Of a stretch of DNA of 64,000 nt, positions 14,960 through 62,600 are shown piece by piece; the first letter of the stretch is position 1, and the number at the start of each line of letters is the position of its first letter. This stretch comes from Phallusia mammillata (taxonomy: Eukaryota): the NCBI GenBank assembly GCA_965637545.1, contig OZ281494.1, positions 13,206,001 through 13,270,000 on the forward strand, written 5' to 3'. Below the pieces are notes generated by a model, which searched no databases, was not told the origin of the DNA, and saw nothing but the letters and a program-made list of their open reading frames with translations. Both the position numbers and the translations under genes were made by a program.

Positions 14960-15436
14960 CAGGGGTCACCAAATTTTTTCACTGCGGGCCGGATATGTTT
15001 AATACTAAATCGCGCGGACCGCATAGTTTATATGCCCTAGCGCCGTCTTTCCAAACTTAGCCCGCGAAGCAATGTTTGCAGGGTCGCCAAGATATGGTCT
15101 TTCTACAATCTTATTTCAAATTGTTTAAAACTGTATAGTTTTTTTTTATCTGACGAGTCATGCTTGTATATTATCACAAGTACCAAAAGAAGGCAGTTGT
15201 TTGCGCACAATTAACACTTGCAGTCTTGTCTGTGACGTAACAAACTGACTTTGAATCAATCTCGGGCGAATCCTACAAAACTATGTAATATTGTTCTAAT
15301 ATCTAGGAGTAGATTAATTTTTTAATGTTACAAAGTTATCAATACGATTTGGCAAACCAAAAAATGTGGTCGCGGGTCGGATGAAATGACCTCACGGGCC
15401 GGATTCGGCCCGCAGGCCGTAGTTTGGTGACCCCTG
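14960..15436. mobile_element. hAT MITE (Buster-type TSD)
   Basis: TIR caggggtcaccaaa / tttggtgacccctg; 8-bp TSD atctaaca. Same family as 50634-51058, in the opposite orientation. Confidence 0.9.
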
Positions 15437-18149: not shown

Positions 18150-18636
18150 CAGGGGTTCCCAACCTTTTTACGATCTCGTACCACTTGGGCGTTCTGTAAT
18201 GCCACGCGTACCACTTCTTGCAGAACAACTAATTTGATCGAATCATATTTAATGGAAAAGAACAAAATTATCTAAAACAACACTAAAGCACCACACCTAA
18301 ATTTAATGAGATTTTTGTTGCATGCATTTTCGCTGCTTGAGATAATTAACGCCTACTATGTCCAACAGCGTTGAACGGTTTTTCAAAGCAACTGTGCTTC
18401 TTGTTGACAATTTACATGACCTGTACTTTGAAGATCGTAATGTTACGAAACAACAGGAGTAGTTACGTAACAATGAGAACAGGCTTAGGGAAATAATTTT
18501 TGTAAACAAAACCAGATAAACAGAATATAAAGTTGTAATCCAGGTTTTTGTGAAAAAAGCGAAAGCTACTCGCGTACCACCTGAAAAACCTTCGCGAACC
18601 ACTAGTGGTACGCGTACCACAGGTTGGGAACCCCTG
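18150..18636. mobile_element. hAT MITE (Buster-type TSD)
   Basis: TIR caggggttcccaacc / ggttgggaacccctg; TSD gtttagga; internal cgcgtaccac repeats. Confidence 0.9.
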
Positions 18637-20188: not shown

Positions 20189-20907
20189 TAGGGCAAATAT
20201 TTTTTGACTTGTCAAAAAAAGTCAAAATTTTGTCAAAATTTTTAGAATAGGTCAAAAATTGTCAAAATTGTTTACAAAGTCAAAATTTTTTACAAAGTTA
20301 AAATTGTTTACAAACTGCATTGTCGTGGTGTTGTAGAGGTTGCACTGCCAGCAAACTATTCGTTTTACACCTTGTAGCCTACTTTATACTGTTGTAATTG
20401 GCCCATTGCCCCAATTATTGCGAATCATAAACCATCAAGTGAGTGAAACAATTAGGTTGATATGGCGTGATGCTCAACACACCTCAAAACGTGCAAAATT
20501 TTGGTAGGTCCCAATTCATTTTACGGTAGCTGCAGGTTAGGTGCAGCTCTTGCTTCGGTTTTGCTTTAGATACTTCATGTATCTTTCGTTTATACAAATG
20601 TATTGAATAATTTTCGTTGTGTCTTAGCTGCAGTTTTTTGGCAGTGATTTTTAATCAGCTCATTCCCTTTTCAGAATAGGTTAGGTCTATGTTCAGATTT
20701 TTGCCCTTCTCTTAGACTTTTGCACATTCTTTCGCTCTAGTTAGATTAGCCTACAGCCATATTTTAACTTTTCGTACAATAATGCGTCATTTAACCACTT
20801 GAATTCTTCATAGGTCAAAATTTTGTCAAAAAAAGTTTTTTAAAGTCAAAATTTTCAATTTGTGGGTCAAAATTTGTCGTTTTTTAGGTCAAAAAATAAT
20901 CGCCCTA
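20189..20907. mobile_element. Non-autonomous hAT element (Ac-type TSD)
   Basis: TIR tagggcaaatattttttgac / gtcaaaaaataatcgcccta; TSD gtgataag (nTnnnnAn); many gtcaaaattt subterminal repeats. There is a possible frameshifted transposase relic LRCVEHH..INLIV on the minus strand near 20450-20495. Confidence 0.85.
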
Positions 20908-21578
20908 GTGATAAGTATAAACCAATTCCATTCTTGGAGGTTTTGATTTTGGAATAGTCAGTCTGCTTCGTTTTTTTAATTTGCGAGTTCTCTACACTCG
21001 TTTCCTTGGGGTTTCCAGGGATGTTCTTTGGGGATTCGGGATTGACTTCTTTCTTTTCAGAATGCAGTGGAGCATCTGAAATAACAGGATCTTCACTGGA
21101 ACAGGACGAAATCATTTTCCTAATTTGGTGACGTCTTCTTTTCTTCCAAGAAATCTCGTCTTCCGAAATGTTCATGTCATCTATTCTATGGCGTTTATTT
21201 CTAAATGAGCGATGGCGATAATTTGGGATTCCCATTAGAAGAAGAGTTTCAACATCATCTTGAATTAGCCTCATGCGGTATTCTTCCGCTGTAGGCGATT
21301 TCTTTGAATGTTCAGAAACGATCTTAGCAGCCTTGGAAGGGGAGTCACTTTTAGTTTGATGATCTTGCTTGTGTTCGTCATCGGATGTCAAGTCAATAAC
21401 TTCATGGTGCTCCATTTTTATCTTTCGGACTTACAGCAGTTTTTGTTTGATAATTTTCTCATCTGACTGAGACTTGGTGCCACAAATTAACTTGTTTAGT
21501 GCTTTGAAACCTAGACATCTTATGACGTAACAATGCTTCTGATAGTTTCAATCATCACGCCTTGTGTTTGAACTAGAG

Positions 21579-22186
21579 CAGTGGTTCCCAACCGGGAAGG
21601 ATTTCCTCCCTAGGTAGGAATTTTATGAATTCAGGGGAGGAATTTCATAAAAACTGTAAAACAAAATCTGTTGGAAATGTAACAGAATATTTTTGCACAT
21701 ACATTAGGGATATGCATTATAATTTGGATCCGGTTCACATTTAAAACCGATTGGTTGTAAAGGGTCCCGAAACAGACATCTAATTATAAAGTCTTCTTGT
21801 ATATACGGCCGCATGCTACGTTTCAGGCGCTTAAATTAATCGATTATTGTCATAACAAAGTCCATTGTTTTAACATTTTTGTTTTTGGAAACTAGATTCT
21901 TAGTTGTATATCATTGTTTGTGTAGATTTTGGTTGTAGCCTAAGTTTTAGTCAACTAGCAGTATTTAAAAGAGACGAGTAGTATAAAAAGAACTGTACCG
22001 CCAATACAACTACTTTCAGAGCGCAAACGAGAGCAAATTTCGCATTGAGTAGTAATGTGAAATAAATTGATATTTTCAAATGCTAAAATTTTGTATGTTA
22101 TATTTGTTTTTCATCTTATGGGGAGAAATGAATAGTTCGAAAATTGGCAAAGGGAGGAATCTAACAAAAAAGGTTGGGAACCACTG
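21579..22186. mobile_element. hAT MITE inserted in the 5' LTR
   Basis: TIR cagtggttcccaacc / ggttgggaaccactg; TSD aactagag. Confidence 0.9.
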
Positions 22187-22356
22187 AACTAGAGTAACCT
22201 GTAGTTTTGGGTGCTGCGGTGTGCGTTTTTAAACGAGGTCATTATATTGTGGAGAGAATACAGTAAACATCTCGACAGTTCTTATAGTGTCAAAAGACAG
22301 CGTTCAACACAAATTAGCAACAGTTGGGATTATTGACCCGACTACTTTGCGAGAAT

Positions 22357-22374
22357 TGGGGGCTCGTCCGGGAT
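22357..22374 (+). other. Primer-binding site complementary to the tRNA-Pro 3' end
   Basis: tgggggctcgtccgggat, the canonical 18-nt tRNA-Pro PBS (as in MLV), located 2 nt after the 5' LTR. Confidence 0.9.
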
Positions 22375-22420
22375 TAGTTTTCAGTGTTGTTGTCTTACCT
22401 GGTAGTGAACCAAGAAAGAG

Positions 22421-24462
22421 ATGGAAAAGATTGCAGAAGTCGGAAAACAGCTGGGTTTGACTGGCGCCGATTTGGCAAAGTTTATCAACGAGCAACAGGC
22501 GTTTGAACGAGAAGAGCGCCGTTTGGCTAGAGAAGCTGAGGCTATGCGAATACAGGGTGAAGTCGAAGCTGAGGAGCGACGCCGGGCAGCCGAGGACAGA
22601 CGAATACAGGCGGAGGCCGAAGCTGAGAAAAGACGTATCGAGGCGGAGGCTCAAGACAGAGCGCACCAATTGGAGTTAAGAGTTTGGAGTTGGAAATCGG
22701 CGGAGCTCAACGCGAAGCGTCAGCGGGCAAAGCGAAAGCACCCAAGTTACCTGCGTTCGTAGATGGCACAGATGAACTGGATAGTTATCTGTTGCGTTTT
22801 GAGTAGAGATGTACCGAATATTCGGTTTGCCGAATTTATTCGGCCGAATCGATCATTTTTGCAAAGATTCGGTTTCGGCCGAATAATTTGTTGCGATTCG
22901 GCCGAAACCGAATCTTTGACGAACACAAATTTAACGCGTTAAACGTGTCTTTTCTGCTTATTAAGATCCACGCAATCTTTCAAAAGCCCCAACATAACGA
23001 AAATTGCGTCAATGTTTATCTTTTTCAACACATTATCGTTTTCCCCACGGTAGTCCAAAAAATTAGTAATTCATTGGCAGGTTGCCAATCATGCTTAAGG
23101 CAATTTTAAACCCCACAGAACTGAAATAAGGACGAAACACAACTATTTTGCACTGGCTGCCTGGTAGATAAACATTTTTTCACGTCAAACGCATAGCGTA
23201 CGACTTCGCGTGACGTCATAAATGATTCGTTTGATTCGGCCGAATTTATTCGGCAAAACCGCCGAATATTCGGTTTCGGCCGAATCGAAATTTAGCCGAT
23301 TCGGTACATCACTAGTTTTGAGCGTTTTGCTGTTACTTGCAAATGGGAAAGATCCGAATGGGCGAGCGCGCTTAGTGCCTTGCTAACGGGTCGAGCATTG
23401 GATGTCTACTCACGACGAAGCAGTTATTATGATCAACTTAAGCTTTCTGACGACGAAGCTTTATTATGATCGACTTAAACAGGCGCTACTCAACAGGTAC
23501 GACATGAAAGAAGAAGGATATGGATGTAAATTTCGAAATTCAAAGCCGGAAAAAGGAGAAGTCCTCAGTTCGCAGTGCAGCTGCAGAACTATCTGCAAAA
23601 ATGGGTGTTGTCCGGATGTTCCATCGAATGGAAAGATGTAAGTTCGCTTTTGGTGAAGGAGCGGTTCCTCCAGTCATGCCCAAACGAGCTATACTCATCA
23701 AAAGGAACGGGCACCGAAAACTTTAGATGGTTTGACAGGGATCGCCGAGCAGTTTCTGGCAGCTCACAGCCAAGAGATGGCCCACGATGTGCGTCAAGAC
23801 GTACGGGAGCTTTGTGCTGAATGCAAAGCAAGCGGGGCATGTGACTGAGGTTTGTCCGAAGCGTAAACCTGATGTCAGAGTACCTAGAAAATGTTTCCTG
23901 TGTGACAAAGTGGGACACATCGCGAAAGATTGTCATTCGTGCGTTGCCACCGGTGAGGATGTCCAGCTCGGCAGCATGTTCGATGGAGGGAGTCGAGCAG
24001 TTTAAAATCGAGCCCAATCTGCCATTGCGTGAAGGCGTGGTAAACAACCAGACAGTGACTGTGTTAAGAGACACAGGTTGCACGGGTGTTCTGGTTGACA
24101 GGAAATTTGTCCATGATGGTCATGTCTCAGACAGGCCAGGTTTTCTTAGTTTGGCCGACGGTTCTGTCGTATCAGCTGAGGTGGCCAAAATGGAAGTGAA
24201 TACTCCATACTTTACGGGAGAAGCGTTATGTTTGGAAAACCCGTCGCATGATTTGGTCATTGAAAATATTTGTGGAGTCCGACCAGCGGATGATCCAGAT
24301 CCGCTGTGGCGGAAAGCTAACGCAGTTTCGACGCGGTTTCAAAAGAAGACGTCCAAGACCAAAGCAAAATCTCGGGTAGTACCGCCAAACGAGGGATGGC
24401 CATTGAAATACCAGACGGAGATCGAAAAGGTCCAAGATGCAACCGTTGAAGCCATTACATGA
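22421..24462 (+). pseudogene. Frameshifted gag (coiled coil, SCAN-like capsid C-terminal domain, CCHC knuckles) and aspartic protease
   Basis: MEKIAEVGKQLGL..., PKLPAFVDGTDELDSYLLRFE|RFA...WASALSALLTGRALDVYSR, KERFLQSCP, CFLCDKVGHIAKDC, TVLRDTGCTGVLV. Confidence 0.85.
22804..23314. mobile_element. hAT MITE (Ac-type TSD) nested in gag
   Basis: TIR tagagatgtaccgaat / attcggtacatcacta; TSD gttttgag; ccgaat/attcgg subterminal arrays. Confidence 0.9.
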
Positions 24463-24671
24463 GTTGGCCTAATTAAATGCGTGTTTTGTTTAACGTTGTG
24501 TTTTCATGTTCGTTCTTTAATGTCAATTTGTGTATTTTGTTATGTCGAAATTTGAGTATTTTCGGGGTATTGCCACAAATTAACTTGTATAGTAAATTGA
24601 AACTTAGACATCTTATGACATAACAATGCATCTGATAGTTTCTATCATCACGCCTTGTGTTTGAACTAGAG

Positions 24672-24972
24672 CAGGGCTGTGCAACCTGCGGCCCTTAGTT
24701 AAAGGTTGTGCGGCCCGCAGAGACGCTTGGATTTTAAATGTAATAACAAACGAGTCTAACTAATATATGTTTTTGAGCAGATTAATGCGTCCAATGCTAT
24801 TTTTCTGCAACCTGGCAATATGTGACTAGAATCAAATGCGAATTTTAGTTGTAGTTGGGCATATTTGGTTAGCAACAAATTGAAATCACCTTGTGTTATA
24901 CACAGGTACGGCCCGGGATCTAATTTTGGCAATTATATTTGGCCCTACAGCAACAAAAGTTGCACACCCCTG
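24672..24972. mobile_element. A different hAT MITE inserted in the 3' LTR
   Basis: TIR cagggctgtgcaac / gttgcacacccctg; TSD aactagag. It sits at the same LTR position as 21579-22186. Confidence 0.9.
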
Positions 24973-27900
24973 AACTAGAGTAAAACGAGGTCATTCTGTT
25001 GTGGAGAGAATACAGTAAACATCTCGACAGTTCTTGGTGCGCTAAAAGACAGCGTTCAACACAAATTAGCAACAGTTGGGATATCTGACCCGACTAGTTT
25101 GCGACACTTGGCTGGATCCTCAATAAAAATCACATCATTGCCGGATTTTGTTTTTTTGTAGGAGGAAAATATTTAAGAGATTGCAATTAATGGTGGATAT
25201 TCCTCAACATCTGGTGTTTCTGGACTTTGATCAGACTTGGCACTTGCAAACTTCACTATTTTTTTGGTTTTCTGGAGATGTTGATCGTGGTGAAAGTTAA
25301 CATTCTTGTCGCTGCCACCGCTTAACGCAGGTGATCCTTCCAATATGGCGGCCGTACCTTTCATATAGGCTTCACTTTTCCGCTTGGATGCGCTATCCAG
25401 GTTTTTTTGTAGATCAGTGGTTAAAGCTAATGGACACTTGTTGAACTACTCGGCTTAAGTAGCAGTGGACACAATAGGCTGTTAGACCGCATTACTTGAA
25501 TAAAAGGAGCCAGAGGGCTATTGAACACAAGTGATTGTCAAAGAAATCGATCAGTCGTAACTATACAAACACGAAAGTGGGTCATTACAAGCAAACATAT
25601 TGTTTGATAGTGAAAAATTCCATTAACACAGTACATAAAAATGATTATACACCCATCAAGGCATTACGGCACTTAAATTAGGTTACAACTTATTACATAT
25701 TTAGCTTTTTAGTAATTTTAGTATTATACCAATATATTACCACATAAGGTCAAAACGTATCTTAAACATTGGTTTTGCCTTTACTTGAGATTCCTCTGAT
25801 AGATCGACAGGGTGAATTTTTTTACTCCCCAAGAATGTCGAATTTGATGTCAATTTCTTGAGCTATCTAAATAGCCTGGAACAAAGGCTGTCAAGCGATG
25901 TAAACGAATACTGGCAATATTAATCAAAATTATACGTTGTCAAATCACAGGTATTCATTTTAGTTGTAGCCTAGCCTACGCTTTTTCAGTGAACTTCTTC
26001 CATTTTATGCCGATAGCAAACTGACGGGTCACTGTGGTGCAGTCTGTCCATTTTGTTGAAGTGTAGTAACGCACAATTAAAAATAAAGCATATGCATGTA
26101 GTTATTCGTACTGTCACCTTTTTCCTAGTTGCAATTTGTACTTACATATTGATAAAATCGTTCGGCAGCCTACATGTAAAATGTCTTTGCTTTGTAACAA
26201 AAAATAAACGTTAGCCTAATTGTCTTTTGTTGTGGTTTAAAACTTCCTTTGTTGCCCACAAGACCGCTGGCTGTTTTCTAATCAGAAAGAAAATATTGCG
26301 ACTTTAATTCAAACGACAAAGAAAGACTAACTTAACCACACACCCAAGATGACTAATTTGGACAGAAGACTGACTATCCGCCAACAGGTTAAAACCAAAG
26401 ACGACTTAAACAATAATGTTGTTTTGTGACATTATAAACGCATGGCTTTAACTGATTAGTATCCCCAAACAGTTTGACGACCGTTTGCTTAAAAAACTGA
26501 TGAAGCCAAACCATGTTTGGGTTTGTAAACTGCATGTTGCTTGCTTCGAGGGTAATCGTTAAAGCGTGTTGATTTGCCCTATCACGTGGGCACAGGCGCA
26601 AGATCGAACGATGGGTACAAAAGTCCGTCACGGTGCAGTGGTCGCGCATGGTAACTGAAGTCTGAAGTCTCGATAATCGTTTCCTTTTTTCTCACGGGCT
26701 TGGCGCCATTCAGTGAGTACTGGGCAAAGAGAGCAACTGCAGTGCTTGTTTACCGAAAGCGGGAGATTAGTAGATCACAGTTGCAAGCAAGCGTTTTTAT
26801 TGCATTTGAGAATCAGTTTTACTTGGTTATCAGTTATACCTGGTTTAAAGCTAAAGTATTACTATCCTGCTTTGATTTTACTTTCATTGCTTTCAGCAGC
26901 TATAGTTATAAATAAAGTTTAATTTGAACTACAGTAAGTTTTGTAAAACTGTAACATGATATTTTACTTGTTACCCTTTAAAGTAGGTTAGTACATGCGA
27001 GCAGTAAACAGGAGTGTTAATACTGTTTGAAAGTGGATGTCAAGCGTGACAAGCGATGTGTGTGTGTGTGCGTGCTGTTGGTCTTGCTTTTGTGGCACCA
27101 CTGTGTCATTTGCGCATGTTGGTTCATAATGGCGGCTGGGTACCAGGCGGTTAACGATTGACTAGACACGAGCAAATCATTGACTTAAATAGCCTACACC
27201 GTTCAACGTCGAAAGCGCCTAAGAACGTTTTTTAAAAGTGTTTAAGTATCGTATTCATGGCACTAACTGTAAAGGTTGGGCATTTCTTTGGCATAAAAAT
27301 AACCCGAGTTACTGCGATTAGACAATTTATTCTATTGCCTTTGTGTCGTTAGTGAGAGACATTTTCTTTTTTGTTCATTGTTCAAAAACAAACGATAATT
27401 ATGCGGTTGACTGAATATTACGTTAAGCAAGTTCTGTGCGCAATGTGAGCAATTAAGTGACAAGCTGTGTCACCGCACTAAAATGTAAGAACAAATTTTG
27501 CCTGTGGGCCCATCTGAGACGTGTATCCATACACTTCAATAAAGAAGGTAACGAAGTGGCTAACTGCGCCAATTTGTTACTGTCTGGTTGTTGAATTTGA
27601 TATACAATCTAGTTCTTGGTTTTACGGATCGGGAGATCATTTGTGCGGACTGGCAAAAAAACTGAGGACATATAACAATTATGTGTTAAGTGAAGGCCTG
27701 CTTTAGCCTCCCAAAGAAATTGACTAGTAGACTTTTGAGTGATCTAAAAAGTGGTGTGAATCTTAAATGTTTGATCTGTAAAAGTCTGACAAAGTACAGA
27801 ACCAGTTCGGCGCACTAGTTAGCTAGATGTTAGTGTTTGGTATTAAAACGTTAGCCTAAGGCAGAAAAGCGCTTTTCTCCCGGTCCAACGTACTAGACAT

Positions 27901-36459: not shown

Positions 36460-36654
36460 CAGTGCTGGATTAACCATTACGCAAAGTAGGCACTTGCCTA
36501 CAGGCCAGTCAAAAATCCAGGCCACTTTACAACAACGATCTGTGTGACAATGATTTGGCAACACTGATAATTCTAATTTTTTAATTGGCAACCCTGATTT
36601 TCGTTCCACTTATAAAAAATGCCTACAGGCAAGCAGACCCTCAATCCGGCACTG
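36460..36654. mobile_element. Small hAT (Tip100-like) MITE
   Basis: TIR cagtgctggatt / aatccggcactg; TSD cgagaaag. Confidence 0.85.
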
Positions 36655-44700: not shown

Positions 44701-47700
44701 TCAAATTCGTAAATATTTACATTGGAGGGTTGTTTTGGTCCTGGCACGCCTTACAAAATTGTAACAACAGGATTAATTTTTTATTGTTGTTAACTCATGA
44801 TCTGTTCTAGAAAATATTGTTTATTGTTCTGTGCTATTTATTTATTTATTTATTTTATTCTGGTACCAATTTGTTCATTTTACTTTGACCAAAATAAATC
44901 TACAACAGTATTTCTTTTGTATTTGTATTTAACAAAGTTATATCTCTTTGTGGTGCTTACAACTCCTAACCAACAAAAAAGAGTTGCAACACACAACAAT
45001 TATGTCAATTCGTTATTACACCGCATAACATTTGCCAATTAAAATGCAGCAGACGGCACAAGAACAACATCGCTTTAATATATTGCTATGGCTTCGACGT
45101 GAACTTTCTTTTTTATGTCAAATTTCCAGTATTAAATACCGGCATAAAACATTTCAGCGACATAGCGACATTTCATTCAGTTCCAGTATTTTAAATGTTT
45201 GTTTTTTTATTTTGCTATTTGATTCTGGTATATAAATATTTTGTCCGGTATGAAACACTGGTTTCTAGAAACAGTGACATATTTTAGTGTGTTTAATTTT
45301 TGTTTTATGACTTGAAAAAGACTTGGTTTTAAAAAACCCATATTTAAAATCTCTGCTGTTCTGGCAGGGCCGGATTAAAACCATTAGAGGCCCTAAGCCA
45401 GGGGTGGCCAAACTTTTTTACCAGAGGGCCAAATTTGCAACTGTCTTGCCACTGGAGGGCCGGATTATATGAGATTTACGTAAAATTTGTCGTAACTGGT
45501 TGCCATCTTTATTAAAATATATATTATTGTAGTTACGTCATATGTCATGGTTGGCAGACTGTTCTAAAAATAACGCTGCACGGGCATTTATTCTAAAAAT
45601 AACAACGCTTGCCACAAGCTACTGCTAGTAGCAGCCAACTGCTTATTCACAGTGGTAAATATGGTGCTTGGAAAAAAACCAGGCAAGGTGTTTGGCGGGC
45701 CGGATGAAACTGGACTGGGGGCCGGATGCGGCCCGCGGGCCTGTAGTTTGGCCACCACTGCCCTAAGCACTAAAACAATTTGGTGCCCCTTACATCATTT
45801 TTAATTCGAAATATAAACGTAAAAACAAAATTCTTCATCGAGATTTCGATTTTAACATAATATACAGCAAGGGTAATAGACTATAAGCTTAGCTGATATT
45901 AAACTGGCAGATTTGTTTCAGAATGTCAGAAATACTTCAAAACTCAATTAAAAACGCCTAATTTTGCTGCTGCCTTCCCCAGTCTCAGCACTGTTGCCCA
46001 ATTGTAAAACATACTAGTATTAGCGTCGTGTTTAATTTACGTTTGCCACATACGCGAATATGTTTTCAAACAGCATGCTATTAACTATAAGCATTCATTT
46101 CCTTTCTGTCTTGACCGGGGGTGCCCAATCTTTTTGACTCAAGATCGACGTTTGAGGTAGTCCAACTCTCGGGATCTACCATTCCGATACAAACTAACAA
46201 GATAATGCAAGACTCTGTGTGTATTACCAAAGGAAAACTCGCATTTTCCTAGCCCTGTTTTACGTTTTTTATCGTGGTTTGGGTGTGACTTTTTACACTG
46301 CATTGAACTTATTTTTTTATAATTCATCCGATGCTAATCTTGATAATAGAAAAAGTACCAGCACAAAGTAACCATTACTACTGTAACTATTATTTTTGTG
46401 AGGTAACTATCACTTTTGTGACTTTTGCGACGTAAAGCGTCGACTGAGTATTTGTGGTGTGAACATATCAACAAATCCTAATGAATAACTTTCACAATAA
46501 AGTCATCTATGTAGGGCAACATTCCCTAAAAACGCATTACAAAAGAAGCATTTTAAATAATTTTCTGAATCCCTCGCGGTCGACTTGATATAAGTCCGAG
46601 ATCGACCAGTCGATCGCGATCGATGGGTTGGGCACCCATGAGTCTTGACTGTTTTAGGTTTTAACAAACAGAACAACACAACGTTGTTACGTCATATAGC
46701 ACGCAATCAATCCCTTTTGTGAGTCATTTTATTTGATTTTCTCGCTTTATGAACAGAACTTATTCATTTTCATTACATTTTAAATAATATATAGTTGTAG
46801 TTTTTTGTTAGATTCAATAATTTACCTAGAAACCATTTCTGTGTTGCCCCTTCTTTACTTGATGCCCTAAGCATGTGCTTATATTGCTTATAGGTTAATC
46901 CAGCACTGTGTTCTGGTATGACAGTAGGGTTCCTCTATTTCTCGACTTTTTCGTTTCTCGAGAAACGAGAAATTAAAAATCCATTTCTCAAGAATCTCGA
47001 GAGTCTCGAAATTTTGATTTAAGCCGATTTTGTAACAAAAACAAACAAAGAAATTTCCGATTGAATGTTTTTTCGCTTCTAGTAGCGATCGCAAGTAGTG
47101 ACTCGCTCGCAAACTAGCAAAAACTGAACACCTGTTATAGATCTTACGCAACCAGGCGTGACTACTGCCTAGGAAAGGTGAAAATGTAGTGGCAACGCAC
47201 ATTAAAAATCGCTGTTTCGTAAGCAAAATACGAAAGTTATGTGCCCAGTCCGCTCTAGAGGTGAGTTGAAACAAATAATACACATGATAAGAGGTGTCGC
47301 ATTTACTTTTTGTTTATGATATGTGAAGTAATTTTTCTCGAGAAATTCTTATTTATTTCTCGAGAATCGACACCCGTTTTTTTGAGATTTCCCGTTTTTT
47401 CGAAAGCCTTGGCATGCCTTTTTAGCCTTGGCATGCCTTTTTGTATGAAAGAAACCATACTTGGTGCTTCAAGCCTAATATTTCAAAATTATTTAGTCAA
47501 AATAATATTAATTTTTTTCCATACCTTTGTCAGGGGAAGCAGGCTGCGGTTTCAATATACCATTTTCAGTCAGATCATTATAAAATGGATTGCTTGGTGA
47601 CAACTTTCTGCTTTTAGATATATTTTGCTCCTTAGCTGTTTCCTCTTCCTTTAATTTTTTCTTTAATTCCTCTTCCTTTTCTTTCTCAAGCATACATAGT

Positions 47701-59600: not shown

Positions 59601-62600
59601 CTTTTTTAGGGGTCTTAGTGCTTCAGATGCAGAATACAACTATATTCTAAAGTCAATACATCTGGATGGTTTCAGTGAAGATCTTCAATTGGCAAAGGTA
59701 CAGTACTATTGCATGCAGAGAAACATACCAATTTGTAGTGTTACCGTAAGTGCAAGTTGGTAAGACTGTAGGAAAGGAGAATTGACCAAATTTAGATTTT
59801 TTTGCCTACATGAAAGTAACTGTATAACTCAATATTCTTTACAAAATTACAACACAAACACTAAGATGGTTTGATGAGGCAGTGCTTCTCAAACTTTTTT
59901 CTCACTGGCCCCTTTACAAGATGGTTAGATGGAAAACATACTAAAAGAAAAAAAGATTATGATAGCTTAAGCTCATTTAGTGGCGCCATTTTATCAGCTG
60001 CGGATGTTATATTAGCCAGTAATACAAAAACATTTCAACAAATTGCTTTTGTTGGTTGTTTCATAACAAAAAAAGTTTGTCAGTTCCCCTTTTATACATG
60101 CAAACTTGCTAGGGGGATGCTTGTACCCTGTTGAAAAACCACTGGTTTGGACAAAGTAAATTTTAAACATTTATCAAGATTTTTTGTGATTGCTTCTGTC
60201 CTTGAGTGTTTTTTTTTGCAAAAAGAATGAATCCAACCATGATATTGAAGTTGGATCATCATTTGCTGGAGTTGTCATCAAACCAGTATCCAAAAGTCGA
60301 TCTACCAATTATGTTTGCCATGAATGGGAAGTTGTTGAACAAATTTCACATTCAAAGTCCAGCTTGGTCGTTGAAATTCGTCACACTGATTCATCTCTAT
60401 CTTCCTTACACTTCCATATGGTAGGAATAGGAATGCCTAAATTTTTACCATTTTCTATAGTTAGTATATTTCTGGGATAATGTGATAACAATTAAAGCTT
60501 ACATATCACCTCAAACAGGCACAAGTTCTTTGCAATGATTTTAATGGTAAAAGCTTATACAATTATGTTTGATGCTGGTTATATCATAGAGCTTTTCATG
60601 TATACACACTACACCAGTGGTTCTCAAACTTTTTTGACCGCGACCCAAATCTGAGTTTTATGAACATCTCACGACCCAAGCCTCAAACATCATAAAATGT
60701 TTTTTTGTATGCATGGAAAAAGACGCAGGCAGCTAGTTGCATCTTCAATGCACCGTTCTATTTTTCATTCAAGAGACCACTTGATATTTTTGATTCGACT
60801 TTTAACTGTGCTGTTCGATAATGAGACGGACTGCAATTTTGAGGCCACGTCGTCGCCGCATAGGAGTCTGCCCATGTCAAAATGGCTGCAGGCCTAACAA
60901 GGTCGATTCGTTCAACAACACTGCATAACACAACACACACTGTGGCTTTGCAGCACCATGATCATTGATAGAAGTGAATCCCAAATCTATTTTTTTTCTT
61001 GGGCGTATGCTTACTTATCCTTAAACGCTAACTGTTACATCTCCAATTCAGTTTCGCATGATTAACTTGTCCTTTTATTTCCCGTGCTACGACGTTACCA
61101 GGAGGCCTATTGTCGTCTGTATGTGGTAATGATTGGTTGATTTTACTGTACAACGTGGTCGAGTGAGGTGACTTTACTTCTACTTTAGGTAAATTCGTTT
61201 GTGTTTACTTAATGCAGTAATAGTTCGTTTTTAAATCACTATAGTGCGACCCATTTTTAGACCCTGCGCGACCCACGTTTGGGTCGCGACCTATACTTTG
61301 AGAACCACTGCACTACACAGTTACATATCCAAAAACTCTGTTGAAAAAATCTAGGTTCTGTAGACACAATGTAAAGTAGCAATACTGTGTACTTTCAACT
61401 AACTCTTTTCTTCATTATGATGCCTGCTTATGGATACCAATATAGCTGTAAAGGCGAAATATATTTATCCTAAAATCTTAAGAATGAATGAATAATGTTT
61501 TTTTTCATAAACTTGAATCACTATGTACAGTTTATCAGATTTCTGCATTTCAATCTACCAAGCATTTAAACAAATTTTAATTCTTTTTTAGGAGGATGGG
61601 GATACAGCCAAATATGCTTATAGGATGCTCGAAACTAAACGAAAGTTTTATCAACAAAACAAAGATTCTCTGAAGTGAGTTTAACCAAATTGCATGTATG
61701 TTATTAAATCCTATTATTTTGAAAATCCACAAGGACACAGTGAAAATAGTTTGTGGTATTTTGTACCTGTTTAAAATTACTGTTTTTGCTTTGATACCTT
61801 TCTGTAACATCAATACATAACGAATTTGTTAGTTATTGTACATTCAAACCTAACAAGTACATGTAGACATACACGTTAGCATTCCCTTGAGTGTAGAAAC
61901 ACTTTGTATTATTGCCCTGTAATTCCCTTGGTAATACTACTTATAAAATCCCAGTCAATATTGCTGTAGCTCCTGTTAAAATCATACTGTTTGCAGAGTT
62001 ATTTAACACTTTTAAGATTGTACATATTGCAAGATTCTAAACCAGTTAAAAATGGTAAAAAACAACTAAAATGAAATAATTTGCAATTTAAAATAATATT
62101 GAAGTAGTAGTTGATGTAAAAGATGGTTAAAATTATACAACTGGTTTGTTTTCTTGTAAATGTTGTCAATGTACACAGAACTTCATGTTTAAGTGTTACA
62201 TTGGCACACCTGGTTGTTGTGCGTATAGTCAACAATGTGGTGGTATGTGATTGATAAAGTGGAATGTGAAGACCCTATTGTACGTCATTTGTTGATTTTG
62301 TAACTCTCGCTGAAAGTTGGTACTTACACTGAGAGCTAACATACTCAGTTTTAAGATCATCATTACAATTGTCACCTCTAAAACAATGTATCCACACATA
62401 ATATTACTACACATTGACATATATATATAAATGGTGGCTGGATTGTATAGTTTTATATTGGCAGTGTTATTGGCTAGTAGGTTTGAGGTTTTTGACTTTG
62501 TGTTCAGTTTTTTGCAAAATACTGTGTTTATTGTGCATATTTTTTGTGTTTATTGTGCATATCTATTGTGTGTTATTACCATTTCTTTAGCAACAAAAAA

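Follow-up and report, generated by a model that had tools for sequence, protein, structure and literature searches.

Repeated insertion of Stowaway elements has reportedly been seen in Triticeae, and the repeat use of one insertion site is a known, ordinary effect. Replacement of one transposon by another through gap repair, as in the P element, needs element ends that remain behind at the donor site. Among LTR retrotransposons, the Gmr1-like clade is defined by the position of its integrase upstream of the reverse transcriptase.

Closest to the present case are the Stowaway elements of carrot, for which different MITE families are described at one position in 1.6% of sites, families with similar ends coinciding more frequently, a sign of a transposase in common (PMC6881990). 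An 8-bp target duplication with the consensus nnnTAnnn is given for TcBuster (PMC3499496) and for Drosophila Mar (PMC3517528). Excision of hAT elements is described as producing hairpinned flanks and, in most cases, footprints (PMC5499845, PMC3499496). Over half of the frog Gmr elements, which are of Ty3/gypsy type, are reported to carry a SCAN domain (PMC4131045). Our search of main texts found no published case of a single LTR nucleotide used by several hAT MITE families, which is no proof of absence.

A retrotransposon with a MITE in each LTR

The window, by which we mean the whole 64-kb stretch of Phallusia mammillata DNA analysed, contains a retrotransposon in which the 5' LTR is split by one MITE (M1) and the 3' LTR by another (M2). 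Its features are the following.

21473..21477, plus strand: target-site duplication of the retrotransposon, left copy, CTTGG, 5 bp, repeated at 25107-25111
21478..22354, plus strand: 5' LTR, split by MITE M1; ~261 bp once the MITE and one copy of the duplication are subtracted
21571..21578, plus strand: 8-bp target duplication AACTAGAG, left copy in the 5' LTR, the hotspot site
21579..22186, no strand assigned: MITE M1, 608 bp, Buster-type hAT ends, 15-bp perfect inverted repeats, dispersed family
22187..22194, plus strand: 8-bp target duplication AACTAGAG, right copy in the 5' LTR
22357..22374, plus strand: primer-binding site, identical in sequence to that of young copies
22409..24462, plus strand: decayed gag-protease region with several broken frames; weak SCAN-like match, zinc knuckle, aspartyl protease
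22804..23314, no strand assigned: third MITE, 511 bp, inside gag, TAG ends; 8-bp duplication GTTTTGAG, without central TA
24571..25106, plus strand: 3' LTR, split by MITE M2, with 34 bp missing immediately right of M2
24664..24671, plus strand: 8-bp target duplication AACTAGAG, left copy in the 3' LTR
24672..24972, no strand assigned: MITE M2, 301 bp, Buster-type hAT ends, high-copy family
24973..24980, plus strand: 8-bp target duplication AACTAGAG, right copy in the 3' LTR; 34-bp deletion at ~24982/24983
25107..25111, plus strand: target-site duplication of the retrotransposon, right copy, 5 bp

The flanking CTTGG duplication, the primer-binding site and the gag-protease remnants in between show that both LTRs belong to one element. 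The primer-binding site is presumably of the tRNA-Pro type; the DNA examined yielded no tRNA-Pro for comparison. A domain search between the two LTRs (22409..24462) matched zf-CCHC above the cutoff (E 6.8e-5), Asp_protease_2 below it (E 0.0027) and, weakly, SCAN in gag (E 0.13), and returned no reverse transcriptase, RNase H or integrase. With its paired LTRs, 5-bp flanking duplication, primer-binding site and gag-protease region, the element is a decayed, non-autonomous gag-protease LTR retrotransposon of the Ty3/gypsy type. The spacing from LTR start to LTR start is 1958 bp once the insertions are subtracted, compared with ~1910-2030 bp in five young two-LTR copies. The 5' LTR terminates in GA, not CA, and the two LTRs differ by 8.1% (CI 4.9-12.3%).

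The original prediction, that different MITEs occupy the same nucleotide in both LTRs, is borne out. The duplication AACTAGAG frames both inserts, at all four coordinates, and the left parts of the two LTRs align without gaps up to the site (93/101 identical), so that the insertion point is the homologous nucleotide. The interiors of M1 and M2 do differ, as had been claimed, their best local alignment scoring 24 with no blastn match at E 0.01, and descent of both from one ancestral element is ruled out by this lack of internal alignment. The deletion said to lie beside M2 is present too, but measures 34 bp, not ~33, and begins 2-3 bases past the duplication.

Each of the two MITEs ends in inverted repeats and is flanked by a perfect duplication of 8 bp, as are most of their relatives. 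In the length of the duplication, in the 15-bp repeats and in their many dispersed copies M1 and M2 agree with hAT MITEs, coding capacity being judged by their short length. The central TA of the Buster target consensus nnnTAnnn is found in 87/98 training insertions elsewhere and also in copies of the M1 and M2 families. M1 and M2 consequently look to be of Buster type, a family assignment made from target and ends alone, whereas the third MITE (22804..23314) is of another hAT type. A first look at the genome gave 368 candidates for M1 and 1414 for M2, with 40 of each scored; the nearest family copies are 3.8-4.9% distant from M1 and 4.7-5.6% from M2. M2 is without a short subterminal block (~17-18 bp) that several other members of its family also lack. 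Its right junction and the deletion are present in Logan contigs of two of four runs (from two studies; one run may be the source sample), the contigs of the four runs being too fragmented to show alternative alleles.

Target preference and occupancy of the LTR site

Buster-type insertions in this genome are estimated at ~14,000, with about one intact MITE copy per 18 kb (31 in 560 kb), and junctions matching with a TA core number 23,132 against 84 in a reversed control. The preference extends beyond the TA to C at position 3, G at 6, A at 7 and S at 8, with A/T 2-3 bases outside. The CTAGAG core accounts for 407 junctions, a ~22-fold enrichment over its share of TA sites, and the LTR site combines this favoured core with favoured flanks. 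A first target model with a single-base background, which assigned the site 29-40% of the LTR's propensity and an expected occupancy of 0.4%, was dropped because it ignores CTAG depletion, and was replaced by a model with a TA-conditioned background trained on insertions other than those in the window. In the latter, the site heads the ranking in each of the five empty LTR copies that were scored, takes 51-70% of the insertion propensity of the LTR and is among the best 1% of TA sites in the genome, where a quarter of Buster-type insertions lie. The coincidence of M1 and M2 is far above uniform chance over the 17-21 TA sites per LTR; when the model allows for Buster-type target preference, the probability that two insertions fall on one site is 0.29-0.50 and the coincidence is unremarkable.

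Occupancy and MITE identity were tabulated for 56 LTR copies, a minimum number (40/62 and 40/61 candidates scored); one further copy, C117, was excluded as a 100% identical duplicate contig. The central TA (positions 4-5) is kept in 28 copies, one of them a segmental duplicate. Among the remaining 27 independent copies five contain a MITE at the site, from five different families (608, 301, 1070, 1002 and 398 bp) that have only end or subterminal motifs in common. None of the 28 TA-less copies is occupied (Fisher p = 0.023 versus TA-keeping). Many of these controls are young (pair divergence 0-2.4%) and have had less opportunity to receive an insertion, and three of the rows are either shifted by 1-2 bases or changed at the site itself. 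A random spread of insertions over the LTR copies is not what is seen: five of six Buster-type insertions share the AACTAGAG site (P = 0.12-0.42), and the sixth lies at a site ranked near the top in the two copies listing it. The automatic end finder resolved one of six other insertions within LTR copies, the remainder being judged by eye. The occupied LTRs form no clade, that at C3:10.02 Mb being 1.2-2.3% from empty copies, in a neighbour-joining tree made from pooled distances of two separately aligned halves, which carries no support values, leaves out 10 of the 56 copies as truncated or interrupted and has two insertion-bearing rows misaligned.

Compared with other nnnTAnnn sites, the AACTAGAG site is the top-scoring target of the LTR, and different families lie on its identical nucleotide more often than chance allows (5/27 against a mean TA-site occupancy of 0.08%). 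Its occupancy of 12-18% (5/27, or 3/25 without the discovery pair) also exceeds the modelled 1.2-3.2%. The probability of finding 3/25 occupied is 0.045 at 3.2%, 0.013 at 2% and 0.003 at 1.2%, so that the modelled sequence preference is not the whole story, on counts that are small and with a position-independent model that can under-predict peaks. Outside the LTR family, the same 12-mer is occupied at 5/34 independent sites, compared with 5/27 in LTRs (Fisher p = 0.74). The excess there is due to an ACC variant (4/14, one of these having a duplication with two mismatches). The exact LTR 12-mer outside LTRs is occupied at 1/20 sites, which fits the model and differs from neither the model nor the LTR rate (p = 0.35). 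A TAGC variant is occupied at none of the ~40 sites listed outside LTRs among the junction matches, as the model predicts, and at none of the 12 sites inspected there. Regional MITE density was rejected as a cause of the excess, since it is not raised (0.13-0.145 versus 0.15 junctions per kb around empty LTR loci). The 64-kb window is somewhat denser in MITEs, at 0.20 junctions per kb.

Probable independent insertion and its alternatives

By far the likeliest reading is that M1 and M2 inserted independently, after integration of the retrotransposon, at the strongest Buster-type target of the LTR. All five insertions would then be the work of one or more Buster-family transposases through ordinary cut-and-paste target choice, those of M1 and M2 probably being separate events that followed the arrival of the retrotransposon. 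M1 and M2 each have the left and right ends of their own family. Their nearest relatives are 3.8-5.6% away as against the 8.1% (CI 4.9-12.3%) between the LTRs, which suggests, though only weakly since the intervals overlap, that the two subfamilies may postdate the LTR pair. The 34-bp deletion is probably a local loss that came later or accompanied repair, and of the copies examined this 3' LTR alone has it. The earlier proposal of an extreme hotspot hit twice independently thus stands as regards the double hit, with three more families at the same nucleotide and the top-scoring target of the LTR beneath them. It does not stand as regards an extreme or LTR-specific hotspot: the site belongs to the top 1% of TA sites and its 12-mer is occupied about equally outside LTRs.

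The excess over the model leaves a small place for a host DNA-binding factor that raises the hit rate or the retention at the motif, which we regard as improbable. By inspection, the minus strand of the site holds two nuclear-receptor-like half-sites four bases apart, the DR4 layout, one matching RGKTCA exactly and the other with one mismatch; DR4 motifs are described as LXR/RXR sites (PMC5159539). The last two bases of the MITE rebuild the cut half-site, and a bound receptor might open chromatin, tether the transposase or block re-excision. Such a factor would suit an LTR occupancy 4-15 times that modelled and one ~6-7 times that modelled outside (4-5/34 versus 2%, P = 0.005-0.0005), the unraised MITE density near these loci, and the 102 genomic matches of the 12-mer against 58 in a reversed control, ~25 of the matches being LTR copies and some others repeats. 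These counts, however, are small, and under-predicted peaks are a concern here too. Three checks of the DR4 idea, on junction completion, pre-insertion half-sites and LTR conservation, gave no support. The first half-site is completed at 13/243 junctions preceding a second half-site (11/241 outside LTRs) and, among all junctions, at 6/100 (hand count) or 8/259, with no clear enrichment. Of the four occupied sites outside LTRs whose left junction matches, one had a full first half-site before insertion, a share similar to that of empty sites, and the half-sites are conserved across LTR lineages at 0.85 versus 0.88 for the rest of the LTR. There is, then, little chance that the 12-mer is a hotspot beyond position-by-position preference by doubling as a DR4 element, with a receptor guiding insertion or protecting the junction. 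If it were so, the LTR family would have spread ready-made MITE traps through the genome.

Less credible still is the other explanation originally offered, by which one MITE in the parent's LTR was reverse-transcribed into both LTRs and one copy was later excised and replaced by gap repair from another family. Both LTRs of a single element are indeed occupied, the two families have a few terminal bases in common, and the deletion adjoining M2 could mark a repaired break. However, neither M1 nor M2 occurs at the homologous site in any other of the 56 copies. The sole pair of nearby LTRs with the same MITE (C1:33.99 and 34.01 Mb), at first a candidate for another element with its two LTRs filled by one MITE, proved to be a solo LTR copied in a 12-kb segmental duplication, the flanks being homologous. 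No earlier stage in which one MITE filled both LTRs was seen, nor were converted ends, and no chimeric ends were found among 30 M1 loci (some overlapping) and 30 M2 loci aligned, the window's own included. Both target duplications are perfect, in contrast to the hairpinned flanks and frequent footprints described for hAT excision (PMC5499845, PMC3499496), and the LTR pair seems older than either MITE. With three further families at the same site, a swap is also unnecessary. Pure coincidence given the TA requirement alone can be virtually dismissed: the genome is dense in such MITEs and the element is old, but a mean TA occupancy of 0.08% leads one to expect ~0.02 insertions at 27 sites, where five are observed, and one of 17-21 TA sites per LTR would not be shared by five of six insertions.

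Comparison with described systems

Independent insertion at a favoured target makes this a clean case of within-genome homoplasy, with five independent MITE insertions at one LTR nucleotide and the TA-less copies as a natural control. It warns that a shared MITE position need not mean shared descent or replacement, and provides a natural measure of the sharpness of Buster-type target choice. The several-fold excess at the motif would alone be of specialist interest, if upheld on larger numbers.

The retrotransposon resembles Gmr1-like elements, as far as these are described in the source cited above, in its short LTRs, its gag with a zinc knuckle and weak SCAN-like match, its protease and its tRNA primer-binding site. 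Unlike them, it is a 2-kb non-autonomous derivative whose pol ends at the protease, leaving no order of integrase and reverse transcriptase to compare. As in P-element replacement, one transposon stands where another might have been, but hAT excision leaves hairpinned flanks (PMC5499845), and here there are no chimeric ends and no copies shared by descent. With TcBuster and Drosophila Mar, as characterised in those reports, the Phallusia MITEs share the 8-bp nnnTAnnn duplication, short inverted repeats starting with CAG and an AT-rich, non-coding interior; unlike TcBuster, they are placed in the family by target and ends, not by a transposase. The closest parallel is with the parallel insertion sites of carrot Stowaway, as that report presents them, where different MITE families likewise lie on exactly one nucleotide. 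The carrot elements belong to Tc1/mariner and were compared at an orthologous locus across individuals, whereas those of Phallusia are of hAT type and coincide in paralogous LTR copies within one genome.

Two MITEs at one nucleotide of an LTR pair

The host retrotransposon is delimited by two LTRs, assigned to one element by a 5-bp flanking duplication:

21478-22354, 5' LTR
24571-25106, 3' LTR

The 8-mer AACTAGAG starts at positions 21571, 22187, 24664 and 24973 of the window, its pairs flanking a 608-bp MITE in the 5' LTR (M1) and a 301-bp MITE in the 3' LTR (M2). Each MITE ends in terminal inverted repeats and is framed by a perfect duplication. Left of this target ('the site') the LTR-to-LTR alignment is gap-free, with 93/101 positions identical, so that the site is homologous in both LTRs, and no internal similarity was found between M1 and M2. 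The original prediction, that internally different MITEs occupy the homologous nucleotide of both LTRs, is thus borne out, as is the deletion beside the 3' MITE, except that 34 bp, and not ~33 bp, are absent from the 3' LTR immediately right of the site.

A primer-binding site, also seen in young copies, comes after the 5' LTR and is presumably of the tRNA-Pro type. Between the LTRs the reading frames are broken, with matches to a zinc knuckle (E 6.8e-5), to an aspartyl protease below the cutoff (E 0.0027) and, weakly, to a SCAN-like domain (E 0.13); neither RT nor integrase was found there. The element is non-autonomous and of Ty3/gypsy type, with likeness to Gmr1 a lead only. Its two LTRs show 19 differences over 235 aligned bases (8.1%, CI 4.9-12.3%), against 0-2.4% in seven other pairs, making it an old copy. 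The same 2-kb gag-protease element also has a young subfamily with near-identical LTR pairs (L018, L023, L062-L065 and other loci); the central TA is missing from its site, which was never occupied among the copies examined. Besides M1 and M2, gag is interrupted at 22804-23314 by a MITE that belongs to a different hAT type and has TAG ends, internal short inverted repeats and an 8-bp duplication without central TA; its very high contig depth suggests a high-copy family.

Relatives of M1 and of M2 are dispersed in the genome, mostly with 8-bp duplications having a central TA, the consensus for Buster-family hAT elements (PMC3499496, PMC3517528). The left and right ends of each match its own family, so that the chimeric termini proposed as a check are absent from both; a short left subterminal region of M2 also occurs in several relatives. 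The nearest relatives lie 3.8-4.9% from M1 (19 compared) and, for the closest six of 25 compared, 4.7-5.6% from M2. These distances are roughly half of that between the LTRs and suggest, short of proof, that both MITEs inserted after the retrotransposon integrated.

The window has further Buster-type MITEs (assigned from an nnnTAnnn target and CAG-starting ends) with 8-bp duplications at 14960-15436, 18150-18636, 45399-45760 and 60615-61310. Others with 8-bp duplications are TAG-ended (20189-20907) or of another CAG-ended type (36460-36654 and 45365-46908, the latter containing the element at 45399).

Occupancy of the site and target preference

The occupancy table called for in the original prediction covers at least 56 LTR copies, gathered with two LTR halves as queries (40/62 and 40/61 candidates scored) and with junction patterns. 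The TA at positions 4-5 is kept in 28 of the 56 tabulated copies; one of the 28 arose by segmental duplication (its partner lies 12 kb away, flanks 92% alike), leaving 27 independent copies. Among these, five sites are occupied in the copies examined, by different MITEs (C1 and C3 are contigs of the same genome):

M1
M2
1070 bp, C3:10.02 Mb
1002 bp, C1:27.56 Mb
398 bp, C1:33.99 Mb

All five have a perfect 8-bp duplication and are alike only in end or subterminal motifs. Occupancy without the TA is 0/28 (p = 0.023 against TA-keeping copies), many of these 28 copies being young. Occupied copies are scattered across the LTR tree, one just 1.2% from an empty copy. Elsewhere in the LTR copies there are six insertions: one Buster-type, at a site that ranks among the highest in both copies listing it, and five with no Buster-type ends as judged by eye. 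Five of six Buster-type insertions at one site speak against the chance scatter named beforehand as a refutation.

C1:33.99-34.01 Mb (L141-L144) is a 12-kb tandem segmental duplication of ~92% identity; contig C117, 100% identical to this region, is probably an assembly duplicate. At C1:27.556-27.560 Mb (L030/L078) one LTR copy carries a pair of Buster-type MITEs at separate sites, of which the hotspot MITE holds a nested Buster-type MITE with its own nnnTAnnn duplication. At L197:7517-8545 two different Buster-type MITEs follow one another head to tail at a single target, where the 8-mer TTCTAGGG is found three times, indicating reuse of the same site.

A genome sample of 560 kb (56 stretches at fixed positions) yielded 31 intact Buster-type elements, against none in shuffled controls. 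Genome-wide, 23,132 TA-core junctions (reversed control, 84) give an estimated ~14,200 insertions and an average TA occupancy of 0.08%, while 407 CTAGAG-core junctions correspond to ~1.6% for that core. A position model fitted to 259 junctions chosen without regard to the site ranks it first in 5/5 empty LTR copies and within the top 1% of TA sites, assigns it 51-70% of LTR propensity, and gives a probability of 0.29-0.50 that two insertions share a site. In leave-one-out trials with 87 targets, the highest-ranked 1% of TA sites took 25% of insertions, at ~2% occupancy. Five of six insertions at one site are therefore expected under the model (P 0.12-0.42). The five different MITEs and the model's ranking support the proposal of a hotspot hit independently, and target preference explains the same-nucleotide coincidence.

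The remaining excess

Among the copies examined, occupancy of the LTR site is 5/27 against a modelled 1.2-3.2%, or 3/25 without the discovery pair (P 0.003-0.045). An independent test took occurrences of the 12-mer AMCTAGAGTAAC that do not belong to this LTR family: 36 sites among the matches listed (100/102 of a wider pattern), or 34 after dropping two duplicates. Five of these 34 listed sites are occupied where ~0.7 would be expected (P 0.005-0.0005), the duplication being perfect in four and having two mismatches in one. Occupancy does not differ outside and inside the LTR family (p = 0.74), so the excess tracks the short sequence and not the LTR. Outside, however, the ACC variant (4/14) accounts for it, the exact LTR 12-mer being occupied at 1/20, which cautions against reading much into the excess; local MITE density around empty LTR copies is not raised. 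The excess more probably reflects small counts and under-fitting of the model.

A separate four-copy repeat (L268, L269, L272, L280), otherwise a weak match to the LTR, has the 14-mer of the LTR site, all copies empty. Another repeat family (L288-L290, L294, L295, L297, L298), listed in many copies on contig C5, contributes part of the 12-mer TAGC variants; all fetched copies are unoccupied.

Less likely than under-fitting is that the excess might be tied to a DR4-like nuclear-receptor layout, which can be read on the minus strand of the site and is rebuilt by the MITE end; the half-site RGKTCA and LXR/RXR use of DR4 are described in PMC5159539. However, DR4-completing targets show no clear enrichment among junctions, a full half-site need not have been present prior to insertion, and the half-sites of the LTR site have no special conservation.

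The replacement proposal and known parallels

The other proposal, that one MITE was copied into both LTRs and then replaced in one by gap repair, in the manner of P-element replacement, is very improbable. The 34-bp deletion is the sole point in its favour, and leaves the duplication itself untouched. On this proposal M1 or M2 should occupy the site in other copies too, a MITE should be no younger than the LTR pair, and excision or conversion should have left traces; the copies examined showed none of this. Moreover, hAT excision proceeds through flanking-DNA hairpins and often leaves footprints (PMC5499845, PMC3499496), but both duplications are perfect. Population contigs were too fragmented to reveal alleles at the locus.

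The observation is real, and known target-site preference explains it, leaving a small unexplained excess. For different MITE families that share a nucleotide, PMC6881990 uses the term 'parallel insertion sites'; 1.6% of carrot Stowaway sites are of this kind, more commonly between families whose ends are alike. Compared with Stowaway as presented there, the present case concerns hAT elements inside an LTR family, which provides a good internal control.
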